64,000 nucleotides of DNA from Candidatus Latescibacterota bacterium (GCA_963791045.1 CAWBQK010000018.1:96001-160000); one strand, 5' to 3'; counted from the first letter of the stretch, positions 7,095-49,737 are shown. The notes: generated by a model not told the origin, from the sequence alone. Numbers and translations are program-made.

Positions 7095-8567
7095 TTGAGC
7101 AATTCGGTGGCTATATCCGCATTGATGGACGAGAGCGGTGTCAAGTTCGGCACCAGCGGCGCGCGAGGGCTTGTGACGGACATGACCGATGCGGTGTGTT
7201 ACGCGTACACACTGGGTTTTCTCAAATATCTCGAGGGTGTGGGGGAGCTCCCGCGAAAGGACAGGCGCGTGGCCATCGCCGGCGATAATCGCAACAGCAC
7301 CGACCGTATCATGACGGCCGCTTCGCGGGCAGTCCTCGATGGCGGATATCAACCCGTCAATTGCGGCAAGATACCGTCTCCCGCCGTTGCGCTTCTTGGC
7401 ATGCGGGAAGGAATCCCCGCGGTCATGGTGACGGGGAGCCACATACCCGATGACAGGAACGGAATCAAGTACAACAAGGCTACCGGTGAGATACTCAAAA
7501 AGGACGAAAAAGGGATAAAGGAGCAGACGGTAACGCTACCTGAGCTTTTTGACGATGCGGGCATGTTTAAGGATCAACAATCGCTCCCGCCGGTTGACGG
7601 CGAAGCCGCCGAAATCTATGTGAAACGATGGCTCGATGCCTTTGGCCGCGGCTGCCTGGCGGGAAAGCACATCGGGCTCTACGAACACTCGGCTGTCGGC
7701 AGGGATCTTCTGTATGAAATCTACACCGGCCTCGGCGCCGAGGTCACACGCCTTGCGCGTTCGGAAGCGTTCATTCCAGTCGATACCGAGGCAATCCGTC
7801 CCGAAGATGTCCGCCTCGCGCAAGAGTGGGCGAAGGAGTACGAGTTCGACACGATAGTATCGACGGACGGCGACAGCGATCGGCCGCTCATGAGCGACGA
7901 GAAGGGTCAATGGCTGCGTGGGGATGTGGCGGGGATCGTGACGGCGAAGTTTCTTGGAGCCGATATTGTCGTGACTCCCGTGAGTTGTAACACGGCGGTG
8001 GAAAAGAGTGGGTATTTCGAGCGGGTGCACCGGACGCGAATCGGTTCACCGTTTGTAATCGAACAGATGCTTGCCGCGGTGGAGGAAGGTGGTCGTTGCG
8101 TTGTCGGCTATGAGGCCAACGGTGGGTTTCTCACAGCCTCACCGGTAACGCTCGACGGCGGTGTGCTGGACCCGCTGCCCACGCGCGATCCCGTGATCGT
8201 TCACCTCGGAATTCTGATCCAGTCCATCCGCGAAAATGTTTCCGTGTCGCGGTTGTTCGAATCGCTTCCGCAGCGTTTCACGGCGAGCGGTCGCCTGAAG
8301 GAATTTCCCGTCGAAAAAAGCAAGACGCGTATCGCCGAATTGATCGCCGCGGGCAAAGAGGGGATCGGGGAAACGTTCCCCGCATTCGGAAATGTCAAAC
8401 ACACGGATACGACCGACGGACTCAGGATCACCTTCGAGAACGACGAGATTCTCCACCTGCGCCCATCGGGGAACGCGCCCGAATTGAGGTGCTACACGGA
8501 AGCGTCGACTGAGAAGCGGGCGTGGGAAATCAACGAGATGGGCGTGAAAGTGCTCCGGACGTGGTAG
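7095..8567 (+). CDS. manB: Phosphomannomutase (alpha-D-phosphohexomutase)
   Basis: KFGTSGARG, catalytic TGSHIP, metal loop DGDSDRP, GYEANGG, HLRPSGNAPELRCY. TTG start after GGAGAGG. Confidence 0.88.
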   Translation: MSNSVAISALMDESGVKFGTSGARGLVTDMTDAVCYAYTLGFLKYLEGVGELPRKDRRVAIAGDNRNSTDRIMTAASRAVLDGGYQPVNCGKIPSPAVALLGMREGIPAVMVTGSHIPDDRNGIKYNKATGEILKKDEKGIKEQTVTLPELFDDAGMFKDQQSLPPVDGEAAEIYVKRWLDAFGRGCLAGKHIGLYEHSAVGRDLLYEIYTGLGAEVTRLARSEAFIPVDTEAIRPEDVRLAQEWAKEYEFDTIVSTDGDSDRPLMSDEKGQWLRGDVAGIVTAKFLGADIVVTPVSCNTAVEKSGYFERVHRTRIGSPFVIEQMLAAVEEGGRCVVGYEANGGFLTASPVTLDGGVLDPLPTRDPVIVHLGILIQSIRENVSVSRLFESLPQRFTASGRLKEFPVEKSKTRIAELIAAGKEGIGETFPAFGNVKHTDTTDGLRITFENDEILHLRPSGNAPELRCYTEASTEKRAWEINEMGVKVLRTW

Positions 8568-8649
8568 CCAGTCTGTTGCCGTATCGCACATAATAACAAA
8601 GCTATAGGGGTATTAGTTCGAGTTCTGCTTCTGCTTCTCTCGAAGAGGA

Positions 8650-8760
8650 CGGTGCGGGCTTTCGAAAGGCCCTTTCGCGGGAGCGAGCGAGAATCCACCG
8701 TCGGCGTAGCCGGCGGTTAGTCGAGCGAAGCGGAGCGAGGGCCAGAGAAAGATCGCACCG
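8650..8760. repeat. Nested palindromic element (REP/MITE-like or structured RNA)
   Basis: Outer arms CGGTGCGGGCTTTC / GAAAGATCGCACCG, then GGCCCT / AGGGCC, inner ACCGTCGGC-GTA-GCCGGCGGT hairpin, and GCGAGC/GCGAAGC mini-hairpin motifs on both arms. Confidence 0.5.
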
Positions 8761-8776
8761 GTCGACCCGCGCCGAA

Positions 8777-11542
8777 TCAATTATCTTGAGGCCCTGGGAA
8801 TGGGGCGTCGGGCTGAACATCCAGATCGATCCACGAATTTGAGTCGAGGCTTGAGAGATACGCCGTACGCGCGGCGCGGCGCTCCGTCGCGAGCGGACGA
8901 ATTCCCACTATCCATACGTTGTCACCATCGAAGCCGAGGTCGAGAACTACGGGTGAGTGCGTCGAACTCCCGGTGAACCTGCGAAGCTCGGAACGAACCA
9001 CCGAGACGAGATGTCGGAAAGCAAGGCGTCCGGTCGTTCCCGTCATCTCATTCATTTCACGCGTGTAGCCAACACCAAGCCCGCCGCCCGCGGAGAGAAC
9101 CGAATACTCGAGCTGTCTGACCGGCGACAACAGCACATCCGTTCCGTCCGCTTTCAGAAGCGAGGTCTCGCGGCTGTGATCGTCGTTCGCGACGCCCCAG
9201 CCAATCGAAACAGTTATGTCCTCGGGTTCACTGTTGACGAGCCCGGTCGTAATTATTACGCCGGACTTCTCGAAGTTGATGGCGCGTTGAATCAGAATCG
9301 AAGCGTAGAGTTTCTCTGGGTCGTTAAGTTGCCGCTGGCGGGCGTGGTAGCTTGCGTCTAAAAAAACGGAGGCCCAGGCGTCCAGGATCGCCCTGTGTAT
9401 GGTGGATTCGCTCGTGAGGTTGTAATGAATGGGATTGTTGAAATCCATAACGGCCTCAAGACCGGATGCGTTCGTGTGGGTGACAAGATTGACGGGGGCC
9501 GTTCCAATCGGCATCTCGAAGACTTGCGCGAATGTCGTGGACAAGTTACTTCGAAACTCGGGCGTGAGCGGCATCGATTGCAGCATTTCGCGAAGCTGCG
9601 CAAAACGCAGCAATACAATGTGGTCGATTACGCTTTCGAGTTCGCCGTCTTCCCGCCATTCGCGCGCCTTTTCGAATGTTTCTTCCACAAAGTCCCAGTA
9701 GGTCCGGTCGGTGCCGGGCTGGCTTTGATCGAAGTGATCTCGAAACACGCCGAACGGTATCACAAACCCTTTGGGAACTGCGTCGGGGAAACGGGTCGAG
9801 AGAACACCGATGGCGGATGCGCGGTCGCCACAGACCCGGCCGAAACCCATCGCGGCAATAGAGGTCATGGGAATGCAATTGGTTTCATCAAGGTCGATGC
9901 CGTCGGTTCGAATCATATTATCGTCGATATCGGGAACCGACACGCCGATGAGCCGTGACTCGTCTTCGGTTGCATCGGCGGCCGGTTTGAAAACAACCCG
10001 GCCCTGCGGCGACACCGCATAGAACATCGCCGTTCCATTTGCTGAATCGATAACGGCGAATGCGCCGGTTGATACGATCGATACGGGAAACCGGAGAGCC
10101 GACGCGTGAGGCCATACAAACGAGCCGGCGCGGACGCTGTCGGGGCTCATATATGCGCTGGCCGCGCGGGCGTCCGGCAGTCGGGGAAGCACATAAATCG
10201 TATCGGCGGAGAAGGAAACGATTGTGTCGGTAACGGCGGCAAAACGCAGAACGCCACCGGTCACTCCCGGACTCATTCCCCTGAAATGCGATTGAATCGA
10301 ATCGGCGAGTGCCTTGTTGTCAGGCGCGGTCAGTCCGGCGAGGTATAATTGTGTTTCACCCACCGCGACACTCATTTCTTCGAGAAGCGTCGACCGCATA
10401 CGGTGATTGATGAACCCCGCGGCGAGCGGTTCGAACCCCGAGAAAAGATCCTCGACAGTCCGGTAGTGCGCGGCGAACATCGCCGTTCCCCCGTCAAAAG
10501 CCCGGCGGGCCGCGGCCGAATAGGAATCGATCGGTATAGGTGCGCGGCTCATCCCGTCATCATCGACCGCCAACGATGGCGATATTTTTCCCCACTCCCA
10601 GAGCCCGATGTACCCACACCCCGTCAGCGCGCGCGCCAGGGTATAATTCTTGTTCAGCGCTTCGACGACTGTTTTTGGGCGCCACTGCGCCGCGCGCTCG
10701 ATGAGGATTTCTTCGAGATACAGTGACAGGTCGATGGCGTTGAGCCGCCACGCCGGTTCCACGGTAAGAATGTTTTCTCGAATGTCGAAGAGAATGCCCC
10801 CAATGATCGCGGATGATTCAGCCGGCGATGGTTGGGTTTCGATCAAGGTGTTGAGCCCATTCCATACGGTGGTCCCTTCCGGTGTAAGCGCGAGATACCG
10901 CTCGAGCGACTCCTGCGGTGGTCCGGTAAGGCTGTCGGCTTCGGTGCGGGGCTCGGATGGCCGGTCGTGCGGTATGTCGCGGGCAAACTCGCGGACAACA
11001 AAATAATGTTTGGAAATCATATCGTCGCGTTCGCAAAGCGATGACATGAAGCCCAGGCCCCACTGTGCTTCGGCAACCGAATCCACAAGCCCGGGGGTGA
11101 AACGGGCGGTCCGCATGATCCAACCATCATCGACCTCCCGCAGGTACTTTTCGACCTGGTACTGTTTTGCCCGCGAGAAAATCCTGTCATAGTCGAGGAA
11201 CACTTCGTATTGGGTCGCGTTGAGGATCTGGCCGATATAGATCCCCCGGTGCCGTCCGATTTCATCGACGAAATTCTTTGGCAGTCCGTGCCTGATACCC
11301 CCGATCGAATCGCAGGGCTCATCCCCGGGGCGTACCGAACCATCGTCGCACAACCAGTACACGCCGTCGTAGGGACCCAGCGAATCCGCTTTGATCTCGG
11401 TTACGAACCCGGCGAGCCGCTGGTCCTCTGGGCTTGTTTCGCCGTTTTCGCCCGATACGTGGGTCGGCGCACAAAAAAAGAGAAGGAAGGCCGCCGCCAT
11501 CCATACAACGTATCTGGCCTGTGTATGTATATAATGAGACAT
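8777..11542 (-). CDS. Exported PEP/pyruvate-binding (PEP synthase/PPDK N-terminal ATP-grasp-like) domain protein, apparently degenerate
   Basis: Signal-peptide-like N-terminus. The C-terminal half has VPKGFVIP, AILDAWASVF and ILIQRAI...SGVIIT, typical of the PPDK_N domain, but the catalytic motifs are altered. Confidence 0.72.
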   Translation of the reverse strand: MSHYIHTQARYVVWMAAAFLLFFCAPTHVSGENGETSPEDQRLAGFVTEIKADSLGPYDGVYWLCDDGSVRPGDEPCDSIGGIRHGLPKNFVDEIGRHRGIYIGQILNATQYEVFLDYDRIFSRAKQYQVEKYLREVDDGWIMRTARFTPGLVDSVAEAQWGLGFMSSLCERDDMISKHYFVVREFARDIPHDRPSEPRTEADSLTGPPQESLERYLALTPEGTTVWNGLNTLIETQPSPAESSAIIGGILFDIRENILTVEPAWRLNAIDLSLYLEEILIERAAQWRPKTVVEALNKNYTLARALTGCGYIGLWEWGKISPSLAVDDDGMSRAPIPIDSYSAAARRAFDGGTAMFAAHYRTVEDLFSGFEPLAAGFINHRMRSTLLEEMSVAVGETQLYLAGLTAPDNKALADSIQSHFRGMSPGVTGGVLRFAAVTDTIVSFSADTIYVLPRLPDARAASAYMSPDSVRAGSFVWPHASALRFPVSIVSTGAFAVIDSANGTAMFYAVSPQGRVVFKPAADATEDESRLIGVSVPDIDDNMIRTDGIDLDETNCIPMTSIAAMGFGRVCGDRASAIGVLSTRFPDAVPKGFVIPFGVFRDHFDQSQPGTDRTYWDFVEETFEKAREWREDGELESVIDHIVLLRFAQLREMLQSMPLTPEFRSNLSTTFAQVFEMPIGTAPVNLVTHTNASGLEAVMDFNNPIHYNLTSESTIHRAILDAWASVFLDASYHARQRQLNDPEKLYASILIQRAINFEKSGVIITTGLVNSEPEDITVSIGWGVANDDHSRETSLLKADGTDVLLSPVRQLEYSVLSAGGGLGVGYTREMNEMTGTTGRLAFRHLVSVVRSELRRFTGSSTHSPVVLDLGFDGDNVWIVGIRPLATERRAARTAYLSSLDSNSWIDLDVQPDAPFPGPQDN

Positions 11543-33602: not shown

Positions 33603-36364
33603 TTATCGAAGAAGCACCATCTTCTTGGTCGCCGTATTTTGACCCGCGATGATCCTGTAGAAGTAGACGCCCGAGGCGACTCCGCTGCCGCTGCTGTTTT
33701 TGCCGTCCCACAAGACCTTGTGATCTCCCGCCTCCATATCCTTCGACACGAGCGTGCGGATGTGACGTCCCGAGACGTCGTACACCTTCATGTCAACGAG
33801 CCCTTTTGACGGCACGGTGAAGGGGATCGTCGTGACCGGGTTGAATGGGTTGGGGTGGTTCTGTTCGAGCGCGAGCGCAAGCGCCGGAGTTTCGGTTTGT
33901 ATGCCCGTCGGGTGGTACGGCTCGTTGAACAACGATCCGAGATATGAACTCGACATTGGCGCGACACTCATTGTGAGCCCAGCGATACGGCCGTCCGCTT
34001 ATCAACGCAAAACGGGCGCCGTCCTCGCGGTGGGTCCCTCCGCCCGCGGGGACGCGGATGACGCCGATCCCCCTGTCGGTACTGAAATTCAACGTCTCTT
34101 TGAAGAGAAGATGGCTCTCCGTCGTGGCGAGCGATGTGTCAAAGACCGCGGCGTAGGTACTTCCGTCACCGGTCAAGGGCATGTCCACGAGCCCGGGAAA
34201 CGTGGATATGCAATCGTCGAGAGTGTTGAGCGGCGCCGTTTCTCTTTCCCGCCAGGTGATTCCGAGATAATCCCGAAGCGTCTCATCAATAAAAGCGTTT
34301 GCCCACCTCGTCATGAGAAGTACATTTCCGCCCGCTTCGATATACCCGCGGATGGGTGTTTCGAGCCAGTTTGTCAGATCGCCGTTATAGTTGTTTCCCA
34401 CCCAAACGACCGATGAGAACTGCTTGAGTGTGTCGGCGGGGATGGACCCGTGGCCGAGAGGCGCGGGGAGATTGGCCGGGTAGCCCAGGCCCGTCTCATC
34501 GAAGCAATCCCAGAAGGTCATGTCATAGTCGCCCCAGAAGATACTATCCTCGTACGCCGGCCAGATTTGCGGAATGTAGTTTGGGTAGTCGAGGTCCACA
34601 CCGTTGACAACGAGGATGCCGCGGTGGAAAGTCGGATCCGCGATGCCGGGGACAACGGTCCGGAGGATCCAGTTGTCCTTGTCGATCGCGATTTCGAGCG
34701 GCTCGTCGTCGATGGAGAGTGTGAAATCTTGTGTGGCGAGACTGTCCCATACAACGAATGTGGTGTCACCGAGCGCGGTGGTGACGGTGATGTCGATGGG
34801 CATCTTGAAAATATGGTTGGTCTGCAGCTGATCGATCGAAAGCGACACGTCATAGCCGCCGCCATTTGGGGTCGACGACCATGTGTATTGGTACTTGGGG
34901 TAATACTCCTCATAGATCCATTGCTGGAAAAACCAGTCGAGATCCATTCCCGAAACGTCTTCGCACAGATCCCTGAATTCTTCGGTGGTGGCGGTGCCGT
35001 ACTGATAGCGCGAATCGGCGTAGTAAGTGGTCAGGATGTTAAAAAACATGGTATCCCCGACCACATGCCGAAGCATGTGAGGCACCCACGAGCCCTTGTT
35101 GTAGGAGAGATTCGAATCGAAAATCCTGTTGAAATCGTTGGGGTCTGAGACAAAGATAGTGCCCGGACCAAAGTACTTCGCGTATGCCATGTCCTGGTGG
35201 TACTGAGCAACACCGTATTTTTGCTCCGACCACAATGCCTCCGAGTACGTGGCGAAACCCTTCGTTGAGCCAGATGTGGTGAAAACTGTCGCAGGTGATC
35301 ATGTCGCCCCACCACATGTGTGCCAGCTCGTGCACGATCAGATACTCGCTGGCCGTATTGCAGTAAAGGCTGGTCATGGTCTGATGCTCCATGCCGCCGC
35401 CGCCACAGAAACTGGGCGTGTCCGTACTTTTCTTCGATAAAGGGGTACTCGCCAAAGAGCGACGCGAACACTTCGATCATCTCAGCGGTTTTTCGCATAG
35501 TTGGCCTCGACGAGCGTGTATTTGTCGGGGAAAGACATAGAACTGGATTTCCATCGAGTCGGTGGGGGAGTAGACGTACCAGTCCGAGTAGGTCGTGTAG
35601 GGATGAATCGCAACCGAAACCAGATAGGTGGTGATGGGGTAGCCCTCGTGCCAGTGATACGTCTTGTCGGGCCCGTTGATGGTTTCGCTTACCAGATTGC
35701 CGTTCGAAGCGACGATCAAGTCGCTGGGAACGGTAATATGGATGTCCACCGAGTCGGCCTTGTCGGAGGGGACGTCCTTGCACGGCCACCAGGTCCTGGC
35801 GCCGTAGGGCTCGCTCAGACTCCAGATCATCGGCTCGGTGCTATACGTATCAAATCCGAAAGCGCCCCATTGGGTGTTCGGCGTCCCCGAGTAAACCACC
35901 GTGAACTCGAACATCTCGCCCTGGATGTATGTGCGGTCGAGTGTGACGGTGAGAATGTCGCTGATGTGGGAATATGCTAGTGACCCTCCCGACCACGTCA
36001 CAGCGTTGACCAGCATGTTGCTGAGCAGGTTCAGTTCAATTGTCGAGAGAGACGCGCCCGTGATTTCACCCGTGACGGTTACCGACCCGGATACGATCGA
36101 AGTCACGGGATCCAAATCGAGATCGAGTTCGTAGTACACCACATCGTAGTCGTCCTGGTTTGCCGTTTGTGCCTGATCGGCCATGTACAGCCCGGCGAAA
36201 CGGTCGGCTTTTTGACGAGCGAGATCCTTGCGAAAATCGCGAGGCATCTCCTCCTCCTGCGCGGTGACGTAGGCAGGCGTAAATAGGAGACCGGCGATGA
36301 TCAAGAGAACAAACAATCGGCCGCATGCGAGGGCAAAGACACGAGTTGCACGATGACTCAGCAT
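33603..36364 (-). CDS. Secreted M1 family aminopeptidase with FlgD/T9SS-like C-terminal domain; frameshifted (probably assembly errors)
   Basis: YDVVYYELDL, SEPYGARTWWPCKD, GGMEHQT, HELAHMWWGD...WLNEG (HExxH-18-E), SYNKGSWV, QNHPNPFNP tail. Split over at least four ORFs. Confidence 0.88.
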
Positions 36365-41737: not shown

Positions 41738-41915
41738 TAGAATATTGGGTGCGGTTGGGCGGTTTTCGAGTCGATTCCTTACTTCTTTTGCTCTTCATTC
41801 AGCCCCGGAAACATTTTCTTCGCCCGCTGCGCATCATGGCGCCCCGCCGGCTATCAGCCACCGAGGACCTCGCCCAAAGATTGTTCGCCGGATTCCGAAC
41901 AGAAAGGAACCACCG

Positions 41916-43148
41916 GTGTTTGAAATCGGCGCGAAAAGCGACAAAATGAAGATGATAGGCGTCATCGGTAACTACCTTCCACGCCGTTGTGGGATCGCAA
42001 CCTTTACATACGATTTAACCGAAGCGATGGTGCGTGAGGCGGATAGAGGGCAGCGCGTTCTCCTCGCGGCGATGAACGACTGCGTTGATGGGTACGCGTA
42101 CCCCCCGCAGGTCGACATCGAAGTTCAACAAGACTCGACACATGAATATGTGCGGCTCGCTCATATGTTTAACTCGCGATGCCGTGTAGTCAATCTTCAG
42201 CATGAATTTGGTATATTCGGAGGGCCGGAGGGCGATAAGGTTCTGAAAATCCTCGATAATTTGCGCATACCACTTGTGGTTACATGTCATACCGTTCTCG
42301 GGGAACCGACTCCGCAGCAGGAAAAGGTGTTCAAACGAATCGTCGATCGCGCGGACAAACTCGTCGTCATGAATTGCAAAGCGATAGAGTACCTGGAGAA
42401 AATTTACAAAGCGCGGCGCGAACAGATCGTCCACATTTGCCACGGTATTCACGACATGCCGTTTGTCGAACCACCATACGTGAAGGAATCGTTTGGTTTG
42501 AGCGGGCGTGTGCTTCTCACCTTCGGTTTGCTCCACCGGAACAAAGGGCTTGAGATCATGGTGGACGCCATGGCGCGGGTGGTTCGGTCGCGGCCGGATA
42601 CGACGTATGTGATTGCCGGACAAACCCATCCGGCCATCGTGCGGGAGGAAGGGGAAGCCTACCGGAGGAGTCTCGAAGCGCGGGCCGCCAGGCTTGGGGT
42701 CGAAAAGAACGTGTTGTTTCTGGACCATTTCGCCGATTTGTCAGATCTGATGCGTTACCTGTCCGAGACGGACATATTCGTGGCACCGTATCTGAATCTC
42801 GATCAGATGACGAGTGGCGCGCTTGCGTACGCCGTTGGTGCGGGAAAAGCGACGGTTGCGACGCCGTTTCTTCATGCCGAGGAACTGCTGGGAGGCGGCC
42901 GCGGAACCCTCGTCCCGGTGGGCGATTCGAATGCGCTGGCGGACGCCGTTATTGATCTGCTCGAAAACGAGGCTGCGATGGCGGAGATGCGCAGAAAGGC
43001 CTATCAACATACGCGGAAAATGGTTTGGCAGGCAGTCGCCCGAGAGTATCTGGATCTCTTTGACCGCACGGCGACAGGCGCACAGGCGCACCTCTCGCTC
43101 GAGCCTCGCTTGTCGGTAACAACGGAACACCAGGCGCACGGCCTCTGA
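41916..43148 (+). CDS. Glycosyltransferase family 4
   Basis: GNYLPRRCGIATFT, QHEFGIFGG, TFGLL..NKGLE, GQTHP, TSGALAYAVGAGK. Confidence 0.9.
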   Translation: MFEIGAKSDKMKMIGVIGNYLPRRCGIATFTYDLTEAMVREADRGQRVLLAAMNDCVDGYAYPPQVDIEVQQDSTHEYVRLAHMFNSRCRVVNLQHEFGIFGGPEGDKVLKILDNLRIPLVVTCHTVLGEPTPQQEKVFKRIVDRADKLVVMNCKAIEYLEKIYKARREQIVHICHGIHDMPFVEPPYVKESFGLSGRVLLTFGLLHRNKGLEIMVDAMARVVRSRPDTTYVIAGQTHPAIVREEGEAYRRSLEARAARLGVEKNVLFLDHFADLSDLMRYLSETDIFVAPYLNLDQMTSGALAYAVGAGKATVATPFLHAEELLGGGRGTLVPVGDSNALADAVIDLLENEAAMAEMRRKAYQHTRKMVWQAVAREYLDLFDRTATGAQAHLSLEPRLSVTTEHQAHGL

Positions 43149-43224
43149 CATAGAGCCGGATGTCATCCGGAAAACTTTGACGGGGAAGTGATCGCTGGAT
43201 GGCGCGAAGTTCGGTGGAGTTCAA

Positions 43225-46200
43225 TCAGGAACGGGCGCCCAGTGATTTCTTCAAAATCGGGAATGTCGTATTCTCGTGAAAAACCGCGATCCTCTCGAGT
43301 TCCTTGAGGATCTCGGTTTTCTTTTCGCCGGACACACGATAACTCATGTCGACAATCTCCGACCCCTGGATCTCTTCGCCTCCGAGGAACGTGCCGCCCA
43401 TGACGAGCATGTAGTCGGGAAGCGAATCGATCCGGTTGGCCGCCGCCCACATCCTGCACCACGCCTGCGCGGTTGTTTTCTCGTCGTACCCGCCCCCACC
43501 GAGAAGCAGCAGATGGTTGCTGTATTCTCTGATCAGAGTGAGAGCGGTTTCCATACCGTTGTTGGTCAGGCTCAATTGGGCAAGCGGGTCCGCCTTGTGG
43601 GTGTCTGCTCCAATTACGGCGACAACGACGGATGGAGAAAACATCTCGACGGCGGGTGTAACGACACGTTTGAAGATTCGTTCGAAAGCTTCGTCATCCG
43701 TGTTTTCGGGGAGAGGGACGTTCACCGTGTAGCCCTGTCCGATGCCCTCGCCGATTTCGTTCTCGAAACCGGACCACGGGTAGAGTGTTTTGCCTGTTTG
43801 ATGGAGCGACACGGTGAGCACCCGGTCGTCGTTGTAATAGGCGTCCTGGACGCCGTTCCCGTGGTGGGCGTCGATATCGATGTAGGCGACCCTGAAACCC
43901 TTCGCGAGAAACATGTCGATGGCGACGATGGCGTCGTTTACATAACAGAAACCCTCGGCATGTGTGCGGCTCGAATGGTGAAAACCACCGAGTGGGTTGA
44001 AAACAATATTGGCGTTTTCCTTGGTGATTAGATCGACGCCGGTAATCGTCGCGGATGAATAAAGCAGGACGTAATCGAATATGCCTTTGAAGATGGGGCA
44101 ATCCTCAACACCGAGATTGAAGTTAATAAACCTGTCCTGCCACTCGCCTGAATTCGCTTGCTCGAGCGCATCGATGAACTCCGGGGCGTGGGATTCGATA
44201 AGCCTCTGTTTTGAAATCATCATCGGCTCTTCGACCCGCATCCACGGTTCGTTCAGGTATCCCTGCTGATTAATAATCTTGAGAGACGTTCGTGCGCGCC
44301 CCGGATTATACGGGTGCTCATCTCCGTATGAAAAGTCCGCGTAACGTCCCGAGTAAACGACGATGCTGTCCTTTGGTTTTTCAATGTCTCGCGTAGGGAA
44401 GCGCACGGTAAATACGCACATCCCCGAGTCGTAGGACTTTTCGGATGTCGGCCAGGCTCTGTTGAGCAGCGCGATCGTTGAAGCGTTTTCCGGGATCACG
44501 TCGGAATAGACCCCCGTCAAACCCCTCGCATATGCGATCTTGTTGAGGTAATTGGCGAGAAAAGTCCCGATGCCGTGGCCGCGATAGTCCTCGCGGACGA
44601 CGATGTCGAACTCTCCCATATTGTTCGACGGATTGTAGGTGTACCGCCCCTCGGCGACAATCTCGGGATTCCGCGGCGATCCGACAAGACCGACAATCGC
44701 CATGTCCTGGCTGTAGTCGATCGAGGCGAGCTTTTGGGCGCTTTCGGTCGAGAGGGTTTTTATGGATCCGTGATAACGGAGACGAATTGTCTCCGGTGTC
44801 AGCGCGTAGAACAGCCGCTGCAGGCGGCGCGCATCGTCCGGTTTGATCGCGCGAAAGAAGAGTTCCGTTCCGTCGGGAAAGGTGTGGCTGAATTCATAAT
44901 GGTGCGGATACACCCCTCCGCCCTCGGGCGGTAAGACGTGTCGCTCAGTGACATACTTGAGTCTCTTTGCCTCGTCGAGCAGTTGTTGCCGGAATTTTGG
45001 ATGTGCAATCGATATCAATGCGATCGCGCGTTCGCGCACGGAACGCCCGTAAAGATTGGCCGATCCGTACTCGGTGACGACGTAGTCGACTTTCGCACGG
45101 TTGAAAGCAACTCCACGGCCGACGCTCGATGCAACAATCCTCGAATGCGCCCCGTCCGGTGTCGTCGAGGGGGTTGCCATTACGGTGAATCCGTTCGTCG
45201 AGCAGTGCGCCCCGTCGATAAAGTCCATACTGCTTGGAAGAGTCCGTTTGAGCGAAACATGCTCGGTGTCCGCCCTGGCCATTCCAGTCAATTCGATCTC
45301 CTGAACCGAATGAATCGATACCATGTTTTCGTTCTGCGAGATCAGAGAGGGATTGCTCACCACATCGATTGGCAAAAGAGAGATATAGGGGTTGCTCGTC
45401 ACATCCCAGTAGAGTTTCTCCGATCCCATGACCATCGTGGCTACGGTTTTGCCCCTGTGTGTGGTTTTGTGTCGGTTCGTCACCGCGCCGGAATTGATAA
45501 GGCGCATTAGATCGTCGGTGATAATATCAGTGTGAATTCCGAGGTTCTTTCGTGTGTCCAGATACCTCATGGTCGAAGCGCCAATAGTCCCGCCACCAAA
45601 ATGAAGTGTCATCCCATCGGTGATCAAGTTGGCGATGTAACGGCCGATGGTAAGAGAGACGGGGTCGAGTGCCGGAGACGGAACCGTGGCGAGCGGAGTA
45701 TCGCCGACGACGAAGTAGTCAATTTTATCGGCGGGAATTATTGAATCCCCAAGGGTGGTCGGCATGTTCTTGTTGACCTGGGCGACAACGAGCCGGGCGT
45801 TGTCAACCGCCGCCTGTGTGGCGTCGACCGACACTCCGAGGCTGCACATCCCCAGCGAATCGGGGGGCGATACATGTATGAGTGCGACGTCGATCGGGAC
45901 CACGCCGTCCGCGATTGCTTTCGGCAGTTCGCTGACGTTCATCGGGGTATAATCAGTAAGAGTACCTTTTTCGAACGAATCGCCGTGCCGTCCGACATAA
46001 AACGCGTTGTAACGAAAACTTCCCGTGAGCTCAGACCGGGCGAGTTTGGGCTCTTCGTCGGCGGTCGCAAGCTGGATGACTTCGAGGTCGTAGAACTGCC
46101 TGGCCATTTCATCGAGTGTGTCTGTCAAAAGCCGAGGCTCTCCGGCGCCGGATCCGACAAAGATAGTCTGGCCGTTACGAAGATGGGCGAGGGCGTCTTG

Positions 46201-46251
46201 CGCCGTTGCCACTTTGCCGGCAAATCTTTTTTGCCACGATGCGTTTGCCAT
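43225..46251 (-). CDS. Triple fusion: acetyl-CoA hydrolase/transferase-like domain + GNAT acetyltransferase + histone deacetylase (AcuC-like) domain
   Basis: ACH motifs (DVALIHVSPPD..G.CSLGVSVD, AQVN..MP.T.GD, VDYVVTEYG, ERAIALISIAHPKFR). GNAT motif A VREDYRGHGIGT. HDAC motifs GGFHH, GFCYVND, IDIDAHHGNG, SLHQ, GADTH, GGGGY. One uninterrupted ORF, GGAG RBS before MANASW. Confidence 0.92.
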   Translation of the reverse strand: MANASWQKRFAGKVATAQDALAHLRNGQTIFVGSGAGEPRLLTDTLDEMARQFYDLEVIQLATADEEPKLARSELTGSFRYNAFYVGRHGDSFEKGTLTDYTPMNVSELPKAIADGVVPIDVALIHVSPPDSLGMCSLGVSVDATQAAVDNARLVVAQVNKNMPTTLGDSIIPADKIDYFVVGDTPLATVPSPALDPVSLTIGRYIANLITDGMTLHFGGGTIGASTMRYLDTRKNLGIHTDIITDDLMRLINSGAVTNRHKTTHRGKTVATMVMGSEKLYWDVTSNPYISLLPIDVVSNPSLISQNENMVSIHSVQEIELTGMARADTEHVSLKRTLPSSMDFIDGAHCSTNGFTVMATPSTTPDGAHSRIVASSVGRGVAFNRAKVDYVVTEYGSANLYGRSVRERAIALISIAHPKFRQQLLDEAKRLKYVTERHVLPPEGGGVYPHHYEFSHTFPDGTELFFRAIKPDDARRLQRLFYALTPETIRLRYHGSIKTLSTESAQKLASIDYSQDMAIVGLVGSPRNPEIVAEGRYTYNPSNNMGEFDIVVREDYRGHGIGTFLANYLNKIAYARGLTGVYSDVIPENASTIALLNRAWPTSEKSYDSGMCVFTVRFPTRDIEKPKDSIVVYSGRYADFSYGDEHPYNPGRARTSLKIINQQGYLNEPWMRVEEPMMISKQRLIESHAPEFIDALEQANSGEWQDRFINFNLGVEDCPIFKGIFDYVLLYSSATITGVDLITKENANIVFNPLGGFHHSSRTHAEGFCYVNDAIVAIDMFLAKGFRVAYIDIDAHHGNGVQDAYYNDDRVLTVSLHQTGKTLYPWSGFENEIGEGIGQGYTVNVPLPENTDDEAFERIFKRVVTPAVEMFSPSVVVAVIGADTHKADPLAQLSLTNNGMETALTLIREYSNHLLLLGGGGYDEKTTAQAWCRMWAAANRIDSLPDYMLVMGGTFLGGEEIQGSEIVDMSYRVSGEKKTEILKELERIAVFHENTTFPILKKSLGARS

Positions 46252-46473
46252 TAGATTCGTCTCCGTATTGCCCCGTCTGATGCCACCCGCGCCTATTGAT
46301 TGGATTCGGCATTCGATAATCGGTGTGGGAGTCAAGAGTAGGGGGAAATCGCGTAAACGTCAAGTGGCTATTGAGTTTGACGTGATTTTTGGCTTGGGAT
46401 GAAATGGTTGGTGGAGTACGATGGAATGGCCGCTTGTCGCACAATCCGACAAAACGAACCGGACACGGACATC

Positions 46474-47319
46474 ATGACATTGAGAAAGATGACAGCCGAC
46501 GACATAGAATTTGCCGCTGCAGTGGTTGCGGCGGAGGGGTGGCTTGGCGAGACGCCGGGTGTGTTCGAGGGCTTCGTCGAGCGGGACCCGGACGGCTGCC
46601 TGGTCGCCGCCTGTGATGAGCGTCCCGTTGGCATGTGCATTGCCACCGCGTACGGAGCGTGCGGATTTATCGGTGAACTTATTGTTGAAGAAAAGCTGCG
46701 AGGCCGAGGTTTCGGAAAGCAGCTGTTTGAGGCGGCGTTGGAATATCTCGATTTGTCGGGGGCGGGCGATGTCTATCTGGACGCCGACCCGTCCGCCGTT
46801 TCATTTTACGAACGAAATGGATTTCGAAAGATTTGCCGTTCGTTGCGGTTTGTGGGCAAGATCGTGCCTCGCAAACATGCGTCTGTCAGACAGGCAACAC
46901 AAGACGACGTGGAAACGATTTTGATTCTCGACAAGAATCGTTTTGGCGCGGACAGATCGTTTTTTCTTAAGCGACGCCTTCGCGTATTTCCGGCGCTGTG
47001 TCATGTTCTTGTCGTGGATGGCGAGCTCGCCGGATACATTATGGCGCAACCGGGAATCGGCGTGATTTCGGTCGGTCCCTGGCTGGTGCGCGGTGGGGAT
47101 AAGCACGCCGGGACGCTAATCGAGGCGCTGGCCTCAAAGACAAAAGACATTCCGCTGCGTATCGGAGTACTTGAATCCAACCAGAACGCCGTGGAACTGA
47201 TCCGGTCGTTCAAAAAGTTTCAGGAGCACGCTCCGTGCTGGCGAATGGTTCGTGGAAATGGAGAAGGCCTTGGTTTCCACGACGATTTGTATGCGATCGG
47301 ATCGGCGGCGAAGGGGTAA
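46474..47319 (+). CDS. GNAT family N-acetyltransferase (two-domain, YitH/HolE-like)
   Basis: FIGELIV...RGRGFGKQL, FYERNGF, FGADRS, VGPW. Start uncertain (46399-46474). Confidence 0.85.
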   Translation: MTLRKMTADDIEFAAAVVAAEGWLGETPGVFEGFVERDPDGCLVAACDERPVGMCIATAYGACGFIGELIVEEKLRGRGFGKQLFEAALEYLDLSGAGDVYLDADPSAVSFYERNGFRKICRSLRFVGKIVPRKHASVRQATQDDVETILILDKNRFGADRSFFLKRRLRVFPALCHVLVVDGELAGYIMAQPGIGVISVGPWLVRGGDKHAGTLIEALASKTKDIPLRIGVLESNQNAVELIRSFKKFQEHAPCWRMVRGNGEGLGFHDDLYAIGSAAKG

Positions 47320-47394
47320 TTTTGATTTTGATCGCGAAGTATTGTTGTTCTGACGACAATAGATATCCCGCTGTTGCGGAGGAGGAGTCCGGAA

Positions 47395-48228
47395 ATGCCG
47401 ACAAATAGAATGATCGCGCTCGTTCAACAATCCGCCGATGAGGATCGTGAGGCGAACCGGCGGCGTGGACTTGAAGCGGTGAGAACGGCCGCGGGTCGGG
47501 GCGCCAATATTGTTTGTTTTTCCGAGTTGGCCTTCGAGAGGTTCTATCCGCAGGAACAAGCCACGGCCGAAACACTTGCTGTTGCCGAGCCGGTTCCCGG
47601 CGAGACTACGGAAAGATTTACCGCTTTGGCCGCGGAACTCGGTGTGGTTATCGTGCTCAACCTTTTCGAACGAGATGGAGATTTTACATTCGATACGTCG
47701 CCGGTTATTGATGCGGACGGATCGATTCTCGGCAAGACGCGCATGGTCCACATAACAGATTACGAATGTTTTTATGAAAAAGGATATTACCGCCCGGGAG
47801 ATCACGGCGTGCCGGTATTCGATACGGCGTTTGGCCGGATCGGAGTGGCGATATGTTACGATCGACACTACCCCGAGTACATGCGCGCGTTGGCTTTAAA
47901 TGGCGCGGAGATTGTGGTGGTGCCCCAGGCGGGTGCCGTGGGGGAATGGCCTGAAGGACTCTACGAAGCGGAGATGCGTGTCGCCGCGTTTCAAAACGGG
48001 TATTTTGCTGCTCTGTGCAACCGGGTTGGTCCTGAAGCGAAACTCACGTTCGCCGGGGAGTCCTTTATTTGCGATCCCGGCGGCGTTGTTTTTGCGCGTG
48101 CCGGAGAAGGAACCGAAGAAATTCTTTACGGAGAACTCGATCTCGAACGATGCGGCGAATCGCACGCGCGAAAATTGTTTCTGCGTGACAGGCGCCCTGA
48201 ACTTTATTCCGAGTGGCTTTCAAAGTAG
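47395..48228 (+). CDS. Carbon-nitrogen hydrolase (nitrilase superfamily; N-carbamoylputrescine amidase/beta-ureidopropionase-like)
   Basis: CFSELAF, FYEKGYYRPGD, GVAICYDRHYPE, NRVG.E, FAGES, RDRRPELY. GGAGGAG RBS. Confidence 0.9.
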   Translation: MPTNRMIALVQQSADEDREANRRRGLEAVRTAAGRGANIVCFSELAFERFYPQEQATAETLAVAEPVPGETTERFTALAAELGVVIVLNLFERDGDFTFDTSPVIDADGSILGKTRMVHITDYECFYEKGYYRPGDHGVPVFDTAFGRIGVAICYDRHYPEYMRALALNGAEIVVVPQAGAVGEWPEGLYEAEMRVAAFQNGYFAALCNRVGPEAKLTFAGESFICDPGGVVFARAGEGTEEILYGELDLERCGESHARKLFLRDRRPELYSEWLSK

Positions 48229-48237
48229 ACGACGAAC

Positions 48238-49737
48238 TTGATAACACTTCTCTGTCGCAGCCCAATTAGAGCTTGCCGCGCGAGCGTCCTCGTGTTGCTC
48301 CTGGTGTTCCTGTCGGTCTCCGTCGCCGTTCCCGCCGCTCTTTGCGTCGACAGGGAGTGTTTTATGATCCTTGTGGGGAAGGACGCTACGACGGACGGCT
48401 CGGTCCTGCTGGCTCACAACAACGACCTCTCGGGCACCGAGGTTTCACTCGTGGAGAAGCACCCGCGCCGCGAACACGCCCTCGGTGAAACCGTGGTATT
48501 TCCAACAGGACTCGAAATACCCGAATCACCCATGACGTTTGAATGGCTCGTCCTCAGAATCGCAGTGGGTTTTGACGAGGGTGATGCCGTTGCTATCAAT
48601 GAACACCAGGTTGCGATCGCCGGCGGTGTCGCGCTGGGCCGTGACCGTCTCAAACGTGCGGAGAAGGCTGATCCTCTTGTTACGGGTGGGTTGACGGGGG
48701 GTGTGCGCTATATCGCGCTCCAGCGTTCCAAAACGGCGCGTGAGTGCGTGGAAATGGTGGGTCGCTGGTACACCCGGTATGGCGTGACGTATCCGAGCGG
48801 CTTTGGCGTCGCGGATCCTGATGAAATCTGGTACATCGAGTCGGGAGGAGGGCGCAGTTGGGCTGCGGTTCGAATTCCGGACGACTGTTACTGGATCCAG
48901 GCCAACGGGTATCGTATCGGTGTTATCGATCCATCGGACACACTGAATGTGATTACGTCGCCGGGTCTTCTCGATTTTTGCAAGACGCAACGTTTGTGGA
49001 ATCCCGAAGAGGGACCGTTCAGTTTCAAAACGGCTTTCGGCGGAAAATACAACAGCACGCCGGGAAAGGTCAGATACAACACCCGCCGTGTCTGGAGGGG
49101 TATGGACATTTTGAGCCCCTCGCTTGATCTCGACCCTGATGCGGATGAGTTTCCGATGACGGCCCGCCCCGATCTCCCCGTCTCCATAGAGACGCTTGCT
49201 GGTATTCTAAGGGATCATTATGAGGGTACGCCCTTCGACGGTTATCCCGCCGACGGACATGGTTCAGGAGAGCGTTTGATATGTTCTCCCACGTGTGTTC
49301 ATACCGATGTGATCCAACTGCGTCGAAGTCTGCCGGCGGACATCGGTGCTGTGATGTGGGTGGGGTTGAGCCGGCCCGACGCGGCCATTTACGTTCCGTT
49401 CTATTTCGGGATCGATGAAGTGCCGGAACGGTACGGGTGTGCGGATGAGGCGTGTGGTTCCGCGTTCAAAAGCTTTGAACGTCTCTCCAACCTGGTGCTT
49501 GCAAATTACTCGTTAGGCAGTTCGAAAGTAATTCGAGGACGCGAGCATCTGGAAGCCGGCGCGTTCTCGCTACAGAGTACAATTGACGAATCCGCGTCCG
49601 AATTGTACGAGAAGGATCCCTCTCTTGCCCGGGCGTTTCTTTCAACTTATGTCGGGGGGCTTTGCGCTGAATCGCTGGACCTGGCGGCCCGCCTGATTCG
49701 AGAACTGGAGACTGTATCCGGCGCGAGTCATGAATGA
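48238..49737 (+). CDS. C69 family dipeptidase (Ntn hydrolase), exported
   Basis: Signal peptide, then nucleophile CFMILVGKDATTDGSVLLAHN, INEHQVAI, ALQRSKTARE, DPDEIWYIE, YNTRRVW, LRDHYEGT. Confidence 0.88.
   Translation: MITLLCRSPIRACRASVLVLLLVFLSVSVAVPAALCVDRECFMILVGKDATTDGSVLLAHNNDLSGTEVSLVEKHPRREHALGETVVFPTGLEIPESPMTFEWLVLRIAVGFDEGDAVAINEHQVAIAGGVALGRDRLKRAEKADPLVTGGLTGGVRYIALQRSKTARECVEMVGRWYTRYGVTYPSGFGVADPDEIWYIESGGGRSWAAVRIPDDCYWIQANGYRIGVIDPSDTLNVITSPGLLDFCKTQRLWNPEEGPFSFKTAFGGKYNSTPGKVRYNTRRVWRGMDILSPSLDLDPDADEFPMTARPDLPVSIETLAGILRDHYEGTPFDGYPADGHGSGERLICSPTCVHTDVIQLRRSLPADIGAVMWVGLSRPDAAIYVPFYFGIDEVPERYGCADEACGSAFKSFERLSNLVLANYSLGSSKVIRGREHLEAGAFSLQSTIDESASELYEKDPSLARAFLSTYVGGLCAESLDLAARLIRELETVSGASHE

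Follow-up and report, generated by a model that had tools for sequence, protein, structure and literature searches.

A predicted lysine acetyltransferase and deacetylase joined in one chain with a CoA-transferase-like domain in a Candidatus Latescibacterota bacterium

Introduction

Why would a bacterium place an enzyme that writes lysine acetylation and an enzyme that erases it on the same polypeptide, together with a relative of the CoA-transferases? This question is raised by a gene at 43225..46251 on the minus strand of a 64,000-nucleotide stretch of DNA from a Candidatus Latescibacterota bacterium (GCA_963791045.1 CAWBQK010000018.1:96001-160000), the whole of which is called the window below. 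Its predicted product carries an N-terminal domain of the CoA-transferase fold, a GNAT acetyltransferase domain and a zinc-dependent deacetylase domain of the histone deacetylase (HDAC) type.

Reversible lysine acetylation of acetyl-CoA synthetase (Acs) is the textbook case of acetylation control in bacteria, and to our knowledge the writer and the eraser are separate proteins in every Acs-acetylation system that has been studied. Opposing writers and erasers of one covalent modification do occur on one polypeptide, an arrangement that would call for reciprocal regulation by metabolites, in GlnE, GlnD, AceK and HPr kinase/phosphorylase, whose folds and chemistry are unrelated to those of the fusion, so that the likeness lies in the proposed logic only.

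Here we lean towards the reading that the fusion protein is a bifunctional regulator which acetylates and deacetylates lysines at the acetate/acetyl-CoA node, with the former transferase domain as a regulatory or scaffold part. It probably switches acetate-activating enzymes off and on.

The gene and its family

The longest open reading frame (ORF) covers 43225..46335 on the minus strand and gives 1036 aa from a TTG start. Since GGAG is located 9 nt 5' of the ATG at 46251, and homolog alignments begin at residues 1-6 of the protein counted from there, this ATG is the likely start. Translation of the window from it gives 1008 residues with zero internal stops, as the original prediction, which was made from the sequence alone, had stated; the domain coordinates given there agree with Pfam hits within a few codons, and every motif named there was located at its place by codon check.

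The original prediction had also allowed that database homologs may exist and had proposed a search for ones with the same fusion. A word-indexed search gave 466 proteins with E <= 0.001 among 7999 scored candidates, and all 120 listed matches of the 466 contain AcetylCoA_hyd_C and Hist_deacetyl in the same architecture throughout, which was also found at 32 loci in species genomes. Besides the window's own entry, the 119 listed homologs are 56-77% identical to the window protein and 820-1103 aa long, and their database names are generic only. Conservation counts below refer to 116 rows of at least 950 aa, in which the window protein is counted twice (P0001, P0002). The features of the gene are as follows.

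43225..46251, minus strand: whole gene, 1008 codons plus the stop TGA at 43225-43227
44938..46239, minus strand: domain like 4-hydroxybutyrate/butyryl-CoA:acetate CoA-transferases with a remodelled active site, residues 5-438
45526..45528, minus strand: Asp242 replacing the catalytic Glu (GIHTD), by alignment and codon check
45226..45237, minus strand: P339-S-S-M342 replacing the G-G-Q loop, by alignment and codon check, with low AlphaFold confidence at 329-339
44386..44910, minus strand: Pat-type GNAT domain, residues 448-622
44611..44613, minus strand: Glu547, aligned to the Glu of Pat AEFAVLV, putative general base (E in 103 and D in 13 of 116 rows)
44566..44583, minus strand: acetyl-CoA motif A, R557-G-H-G560-I-G562, by alignment and codon check
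43432..44370, minus strand: class I Zn-dependent deacetylase domain, residues 628-940
44101-44103, minus strand: Asp717 of EDCP (D in 78 and E in 38 of 116 rows)
43975..43980, minus strand: His758-His759 dyad of GGFHH (H758 in 115/116 and H759 in 116/116 rows)
43864..43872, minus strand: Asp794-Ala-His796 with two Zn ligands, in D792-I-D794-A-H796 (both 116/116 rows)
43603-43605, minus strand: Asp883, third Zn ligand (116/116 rows)
43486-43488, minus strand: catalytic Tyr922 of GGGGY922 (115/116 rows)
43228..43431, minus strand: C-terminal tail, residues 941-1008, with a long helix at 976-1005 in the model

In an alignment of 34 sequences the catalytic columns of the HDAC and GNAT domains are invariant or nearly so, and mean column conservation is alike across all parts of the protein (0.69-0.77). 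AlphaFold2 with this alignment modelled the whole chain with a mean predicted local distance difference test score of 85.6 and a predicted template modelling score of 0.86; confidence is low at residues 86-98, 329-339 (the former GGQ loop), 824-836 and 951-965. When the full model was compared with the PDB by Foldseek, only single-domain matches were obtained (4-hydroxybutyrate CoA-transferases, then class I HDACs), with no solved multi-domain analogue. NCBIfam holds no equivalog for the window protein, all matches being far under their cut-offs.

We give virtually no credence to an assembly or gene-calling artefact in which neighbouring genes were read as one. The source is a metagenome-assembled genome (MAG; 3.66 Mb, 21 contigs, 81% complete) with frame faults elsewhere, as Acs lies in two frames and a CoA-transferase paralog has an in-frame TAA. 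Against this stand the uninterrupted ORF of the fusion gene, the linkers between the domains, which are conserved in homologs, and the same continuous architecture in the 119 other listed protein clusters, which come from many independent assemblies, and at the 32 loci; the explanation was rejected on these grounds.

The acetyltransferase and deacetylase domains

Pfam places Acetyltransf_1 at residues 525-596 (6.9e-9). The sole solved matches of residues 448-622 are Pat enzymes, namely PatZ/Pat (9it0, the nearest, 5.8e-15, and 9isq), S. lividans PatA (4nxy), Sulfolobus Pat (3f8k) and mycobacterial Pat (4ava, 4oll), and the alignment spans the Pat-specific N-terminal segment as well as the strand AEFAVLV, which reads GEFDIVV here. 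The domain thus combines the GNAT fold and a motif A of the form (Q/R)-x-x-G-x-(G/A), conserved as R/Q557 in 111, G560 in 115 and G/A562 in 116 of the rows, with kinship to Pat enzymes and a Glu on the aligned strand. From the Pat literature we take the equivalent of Glu547 to be the general base of these enzymes. The NDP-forming acyl-CoA-synthetase-like regulatory domain of Pat types I/II is absent, the N-terminal domain being CoA-transferase-like instead, and the NCBIfam model for mycobacterial Pat gives 52 bits vs a cut-off of 460. Judged by these residues, the GNAT domain looks catalytically competent.

For the deacetylase, Pfam gives Hist_deacetyl at residues 646-937 (1.2e-77). The closest solved relatives of residues 628-940 are human HDAC2 (5e-65), HDAC1, HDAC3, HDAC8, yeast Rpd3 and Aquifex HDLP; the best 60 solved matches consist of HDAC2, 1, 3, 8, Rpd3, Clr6 and HDLP, so the domain is closer to class I than to class II/IV, and acetylpolyamine amidohydrolases are not among its best solved matches. 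The His-His dyad, the Asp-His-Asp Zn ligands and the Tyr in GGGY are all present and aligned to the HDAC2/HDAC1 motifs, and the Asp or Glu at position 717 in EDCP is presumably the residue that grips the peptide backbone. With this set of residues the deacetylase domain looks catalytically competent too. The C-terminal tail is common to the closest stand-alone deacetylases, whose matches extend to residues 999-1007. The class I label rests on the solved matches together with a recent survey which groups B. subtilis AcuC with class I enzymes (PMC11532494); AcuC is likened to the domain through that published grouping. Membership in an AcuC-like group was considered and dropped, the JGI name being a generic COG label, and the claim is limited to the class I type.

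The Pat-type GNAT domain would offer a ready Acs-binding module; one activity alone might matter and the other domain might act as a docking module, for example with the GNAT domain holding Acs for the deacetylase, or the reverse. B. subtilis AcuA is reportedly found in a stable complex with AcsA, which counts for this explanation. We nevertheless regard it as very unlikely, since the catalytic residues of both domains are retained in 115-116 of 116 rows and docking alone would need no such retention.

The N-terminal CoA-transferase-like domain

The N-terminal domain has the two-lobed AcetylCoA_hydro plus AcetylCoA_hyd_C fold of family I CoA-transferases (Pfam: residues 13-190, 3.9e-25, and residues 276-428, 1e-42). 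Five solved 4-hydroxybutyrate CoA-transferases (3eh7, 9vag, 2oas, 3d3u and 3gk7) align over residues 5-438 with E values from 5e-94 to 2e-68, and the Foldseek search gave template modelling scores of 0.87-0.93 on target for this domain against enzymes of the same kind. The shared fold extends to butyryl-CoA:acetate CoA-transferases, with 30-38% identity over about 430 residues to AbfT (3gk7), the P. gingivalis (3eh7) and Shewanella (2oas) enzymes and Yersinia RipA (3qli). The NCBIfam equivalog model for butyryl-CoA:acetate CoA-transferase reaches 181 bits vs a cut-off of 675.

Unlike in these enzymes, the active site has been altered. Asp242 is aligned to the Glu of GIH(T/S)E in all five solved enzymes (Glu238 in 3gk7 by our own count), and the titles of the RipA E249D and E249A mutant entries in the PDB point to the residue equivalent to Asp242. 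The nucleophilic Glu of G(I/V)H(S/T)E is therefore missing from the window protein, and so is the GxGGQxDF loop, since L-P-S-S-M-D-F is aligned to the GGQxDF of the solved enzymes. Because these two defining features were tested and not found, the window protein falls outside the definition of family I CoA-transferases; and with both the Glu nucleophile and the GGQ loop lost, the known mechanism predicts that the domain is incapable of the covalent transferase cycle.

The same holds across the family. The alignment of the Glu site over homologs, which had been proposed as a check, gave D in 104, E in 7, L in 2 and A, G and I in one row each, that is, five non-acidic rows and a carboxylate in 111 of 116, and the GGQ loop was not found in any family row inspected, including the seven with Glu at 242. 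A set of 20 stand-alone CoA-transferase representatives of the Glu type served to define 66 canonical positions, each with 90% conservation or more; 47 are kept in the family and 19 are changed. The changed positions carry new conserved residues (e.g., H217 in 112 rows, D219 in 108 and P339 in 100), Q217, G219, P224, Q324 and R346 of the transferases being among those swapped, which indicates that the pocket has been rebuilt and not left decaying.

The domain could still be a working enzyme. All three parts of the chain would then be active, with the N-terminal domain as an acyl-CoA (acetyl-CoA) hydrolase in which Asp242 activates water and thioester hydrolysis is coupled to acetylation and deacetylation. 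According to PMC12400318, which cites Mack & Buckel 1997, family I CoA-transferases become CoA-ester hydrolases when their catalytic Glu is changed to Asp, and hydrolase activity was seen in the E46D mutant of CtfAB. The acidic residue in nearly all rows agrees with this, as does the conservation of the domain, which equals that of the catalytic domains. We regard a hydrolase as rather unlikely all the same, because the engineered hydrolases retained the remainder of the site, whereas here the GGQ loop is gone in every member inspected, even those that keep Glu, 19 of the 66 canonical positions are altered, and position 242 is L, A, G or I in five members; in the wider family of two-domain relatives described below, 19 of 73 representatives have no acidic residue at the site. 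The original prediction had called the domain disabled. The loss on which this was based, of the Glu nucleophile and the GGQ loop, is confirmed; the word itself may be too strong, given the conservation of Asp242 in 104 of 116 rows and the route from Glu-to-Asp to a hydrolase.

Among stand-alone CoA-transferase relatives of 415-455 aa, 9 of 30 have Gly at the Glu position (GIHSG or GVHSG) and keep a GG(Q)-type loop. The source genome itself encodes a stand-alone CoA-transferase paralog (C6:90486-91634, L002) with 38% identity to residues 53-435 and one in-frame TAA.

Related proteins and distribution

An exhaustive HMMER search was carried out over 1.84 billion representatives at 50% identity, of which the best 150 were listed. 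The three-domain family with a class I-type deacetylase forms a single 50%-identity cluster (P0065), and the next-best matches belong to a large family of proteins of about 620 aa which consist of a CoA-transferase-like and a GNAT domain (CoAT-GNAT) and have 30-41% identity to residues 1-620. Of the 149 other listed representatives 78 are 580-670 aa long, and in 73 of those the alignment extends across the GNAT domain. The Glu site of this set is E in 40, D in 14 and another residue or a gap in 19; only 15 combine Glu with GGQ, vs 69 that keep an acidic GNAT base and 69 that keep the motif-A Gly, which argues that the GNAT domain is the selected catalytic part and the CoA-transferase active site is dispensable. 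The two-domain proteins, which go by 'GNAT family N-acetyltransferase' or 'acyl-CoA hydrolase/GNAT', are directly related to residues 1-620 and differ from the fusion in having no deacetylase and in these retained residues. Their genes often co-occur with the three-domain gene, and the closest of them (P0122, 41% identity) already has GIHTD.

Other fusions were found among the relatives. P0134 joins a CoA-transferase-like domain (Gly at the Glu site), a GNAT and an HDAC domain, and since the best solved matches of the latter are HDAC6, HDAH, HdaH and HDAC4, it is an independent fusion with a class II-type HDAC. P0209 is a fusion of a GNAT and a class I-type HDAC, and P0148 one of a receiver domain and an HDAC with 47% identity to the HDAC part. 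Two CoAT-GNAT proteins (P0125, P0128) are extended at the N-terminus by about 340 aa that contain 4Fe-4S dicluster motifs, and have Val or Gln at the Glu site.

The 32 loci of the three-domain gene (L007-L036, L043, L076) were taken from one genome per species and all lie in MAGs; every carrier found is uncultured. The carriers are labelled Myxococcota/Deltaproteobacteria, Planctomycetota, Nitrospirales, Fibrobacterota, Aminicenantes, Thermoplasmatota and others. Full-length copies are present in 3 of 13 genomes of the source family, the source included, and in 3 of 23 of the sister family, with fragments in 2 more. In a quick tree, built from 27 three-domain rows with 2 two-domain proteins as outgroups and good for coarse statements only, the three-domain clade has a support of 99, archaeal rows stand in two separate places, and the window protein clusters with L007, L036/L008/L009 and L012. 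The distribution fits one fusion event followed by transfer across phyla and domains.

Gene neighbourhoods

Acs (ACAS_N plus AMP-binding) is encoded directly upstream of the three-domain gene and on the same strand at L010 and L016 (19-nt gap each) and at L012 (260-nt gap), that is, at 3 of the 32 loci, several of which have short flanks. The Acs-adjacent loci belong to two separate subclades of the quick tree, and L010 and L016 also hold a convergent CoAT-GNAT paralog. The closest stand-alone HDACs, with 39-51% identity to residues ~625-1000, were followed at 47 loci. A true Acs, 61-72% identical to that of L010, lies inside the flank at 9 of these 47: the HDAC gene directly adjoins Acs at L064, L078 and L082, and faces a convergent pair of an MFS transporter gene and Acs at L055, L067, L074, L075, L081 and L083. 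The sequence PKTRSGKIMRR is present in all these neighbouring Acs proteins and in the source genome's own Acs.

In Deltaproteobacteria/Thermodesulfobacteriota MAGs (L075, L081, L083 and, as a variant, L078), a Cache-PAS histidine kinase, a single-domain response regulator and the HDAC face the MFS transporter and Acs. This cluster and the receiver-HDAC fusion P0148 together suggest two-component control of Acs deacetylation.

G038, a genome of the same class as the source, has a split operon on one strand, in which a 621-aa CoAT-GNAT gene is followed by a gene for a 390-aa HDAC (39% identity to the HDAC part) and by a third gene.

3758-6190 of L095 (G038:C11), minus strand: 810-aa protein with Acetate_kinase-like (259-415) and PTA_PTB (581-797) domains

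The original prediction had linked the fusion to Acs control by analogy with AcuA/AcuC; the Acs neighbours at 3 of 32 and 9 of 47 loci and the G038 operon supply genomic support, and Acs as the target of the fusion protein is moderately supported.

The CoAT-GNAT protein of G038 retains GLHTE and GIGGQVDF, which would suit a metabolic relay on small molecules: acetate released by the HDAC from an N-acetylated compound would be re-activated by the CoA-transferase and then transferred by the GNAT to another amine, such as a polyamine, amino acid or sugar amine. On paper the three domain types can be linked through their products and substrates, and in the window a second GNAT, a nitrilase-type hydrolase and, a few kb off, a PIG-L deacetylase are encoded near the fusion. 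Such a relay is quite unlikely, as the transferase nucleophile and loop are absent from the window protein and from its whole clade, the solved kin of the GNAT are Pat-type protein acetyltransferases down to the Pat-specific N-terminal segment, and the HDAC is of class I, with the EDCP Asp/Glu retained and acetylpolyamine amidohydrolases outside its best matches.

A two-domain gene was also found next to a different acyl-CoA enzyme. At L086 (Spirochaetota MAG, 7875-11023, plus strand) a CoAT-GNAT gene is followed after 18 nt by a gene for an ADP-forming acyl-CoA synthetase (709 aa) and by one for a DRTGG plus AAA_26 protein, so that two-domain genes adjoin acetate/acetyl-CoA genes there and in G038.

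Proposed function and comparison with known systems

In the reading we prefer, that of a two-way acetylation regulator, the Pat-type GNAT domain would move acetyl from acetyl-CoA onto a target lysine and the class I Zn-deacetylase would hydrolyse acetyl-lysine to release acetate. The likeliest targets would be acetate/acetyl-CoA node enzymes, above all AMP-forming Acs at the Lys of PKTRSGKIMRR; an Acs-type target is inferred from the gene neighbourhood and the known action of Pat and AcuA/AcuC. The N-terminal domain, descended from a 4-hydroxybutyrate/butyryl-CoA:acetate CoA-transferase, would bind acyl-CoA, CoA or a carboxylate and so tune the balance of writing and erasing. By analogy with Pat enzymes, ligand binding there may bias the protein to one activity or the other. 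In SePat, acetyl-CoA also occupies a second site, beyond the GNAT core, where it makes the kinetics sigmoidal and causes tetramers to form (PMC3195501); for PatZ, acetyl-CoA on the regulatory domain is described as a prerequisite for catalysis (bioRxiv 10.1101/2024.11.12.623305). This precedent for ligand gating covers the writer half alone.

Several points weigh against this proposal. Acs adjoins the gene at just 3 of the 32 three-domain loci, where the other neighbours are diverse (e.g., LarA, Ldh, aldehyde dehydrogenase, Nuo51-like and PFK genes), and the enrichment of acs was judged against our own rough estimate of ~1% chance within 6 kb for one to three acs per genome. In the window no Acs lies beside the gene, whose neighbours encode a GNAT, a nitrilase-type hydrolase, a C69 peptidase, a glycosyltransferase, GH130, pyruvate kinase and PFK. 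The Acs gene of the source genome lies on a different contig (C3:68972-70871, L087/L088) and in two frames (query residues 6-228 and 225-651), which suggests a frameshift or assembly error; PKTRSGKIMRR is kept in the C-terminal piece. Separate GNAT and HDAC paralogs in the same genome leave the specific role of the fusion less plain. Asp242, in 104 of 116 rows, is also compatible with a hydrolytic role. Finally, a fusion without reciprocal control would waste acetyl-CoA in a futile cycle.

Among known systems the fusion resembles Pat/PatZ (YfiQ; Salmonella, E. coli) in its GNAT domain, in a large N-terminal domain taken from a CoA-ester enzyme whose ancestral reaction is lost, and in that Acs, the known target of Pat, is encoded beside some members of the fusion family. 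It differs in that the regulatory domain of Pat has the NDP-forming acyl-CoA synthetase fold and that of the fusion the family I CoA-transferase fold; moreover, Pat has no deacetylase domain, its eraser CobB being a separate sirtuin. Published classifications list NDP-forming synthetase-like, ACT, cAMP-binding and NADP-binding regulatory domains for Pat-type enzymes (PMC6456759, PMC11254643), so a CoA-transferase-like domain, unlike any of those listed there, would be a new type. With AcuA/AcuC of Bacillus subtilis the fusion shares a GNAT writer set against a class I-type Zn-deacetylase eraser on acetyl-CoA synthetase (AcsA), with genes beside acs. In that system, unlike in the fusion, the writer and the eraser are two proteins, AcuA consists of one GNAT domain that is not Pat-type, there is no CoA-transferase-like domain, and control is reportedly exerted by AcuB or adaptor proteins. 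In summary, the architecture is solid, the Acs target is moderately supported, and the fusion resembles Pat plus AcuC in one chain.

The original prediction knew of no characterised protein with this architecture. Consistent with this, our literature search, which did not extend to subscription journals and supplements, found no paper that describes a CoA-transferase-GNAT-HDAC protein or a natural prokaryotic acetyltransferase-deacetylase fusion, and term searches of PMC8556138 and the PatZ preprint met no mention of such an architecture.

Surroundings of the gene in the window

The fusion gene is apparently monocistronic, lying between a divergent and a convergent neighbour.

46399-47319, plus strand: 306-aa GNAT gene (Acetyltransf_1 + Acetyltransf_18), divergent, upstream of the fusion gene
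41745-43148, plus strand: glycosyltransferase gene, convergent, downstream of the fusion gene

The divergent GNAT gene begins a three-gene run (46399-49737, plus strand) that also encodes a nitrilase-type CN_hydrolase and a C69 dipeptidase; at the other loci the three genes do not recur beside fusion homologs. A scan of 42900-46600 returned 3 promoter-like sites vs 1.7 expected and 2 terminator-like sites vs 4.2 expected, in both cases no better than chance. When sequencing runs were screened for sampled words of the gene, the share in any run was at most 0.16 and no RNA run was among the matching runs listed. Farther off, peptidase M1 is split over two minus-strand ORFs, with its catalytic part at 33793-35235 and its N-terminal domain at 35477-36364; an aminopeptidase N gene that has been split or frameshifted may account for 33793-36364.

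Significance

If both activities are real, the fusion would offer a compact natural system for studying how opposing acetylation activities avoid futile cycling, and the former CoA-transferase would be a new kind of regulatory domain for Pat-type acetyltransferases. The finding would also bring in the large, uncharacterised CoAT-GNAT family, which accounts for 73 of the best 150 representatives of clusters at 50% identity. In that family an enzyme active site seems to have decayed into a probable sensor with the intermediates still extant (Glu plus GGQ in 15/73, Asp in 14/73, non-acidic in 19/73). Only tentatively do we suggest, and with more doubt than belief, that this may be the first natural single-chain lysine acetyltransferase-deacetylase, in which a pseudo-CoA-transferase senses acyl-CoA/CoA (or acetate) and flips the activity on Acs and related enzymes, and which arose more than once, with deacetylases of class I and of class II, and moved between bacteria and archaea. 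If such a ligand-flipped switch is true, it would be the acetylation counterpart of GlnE, GlnD and AceK.

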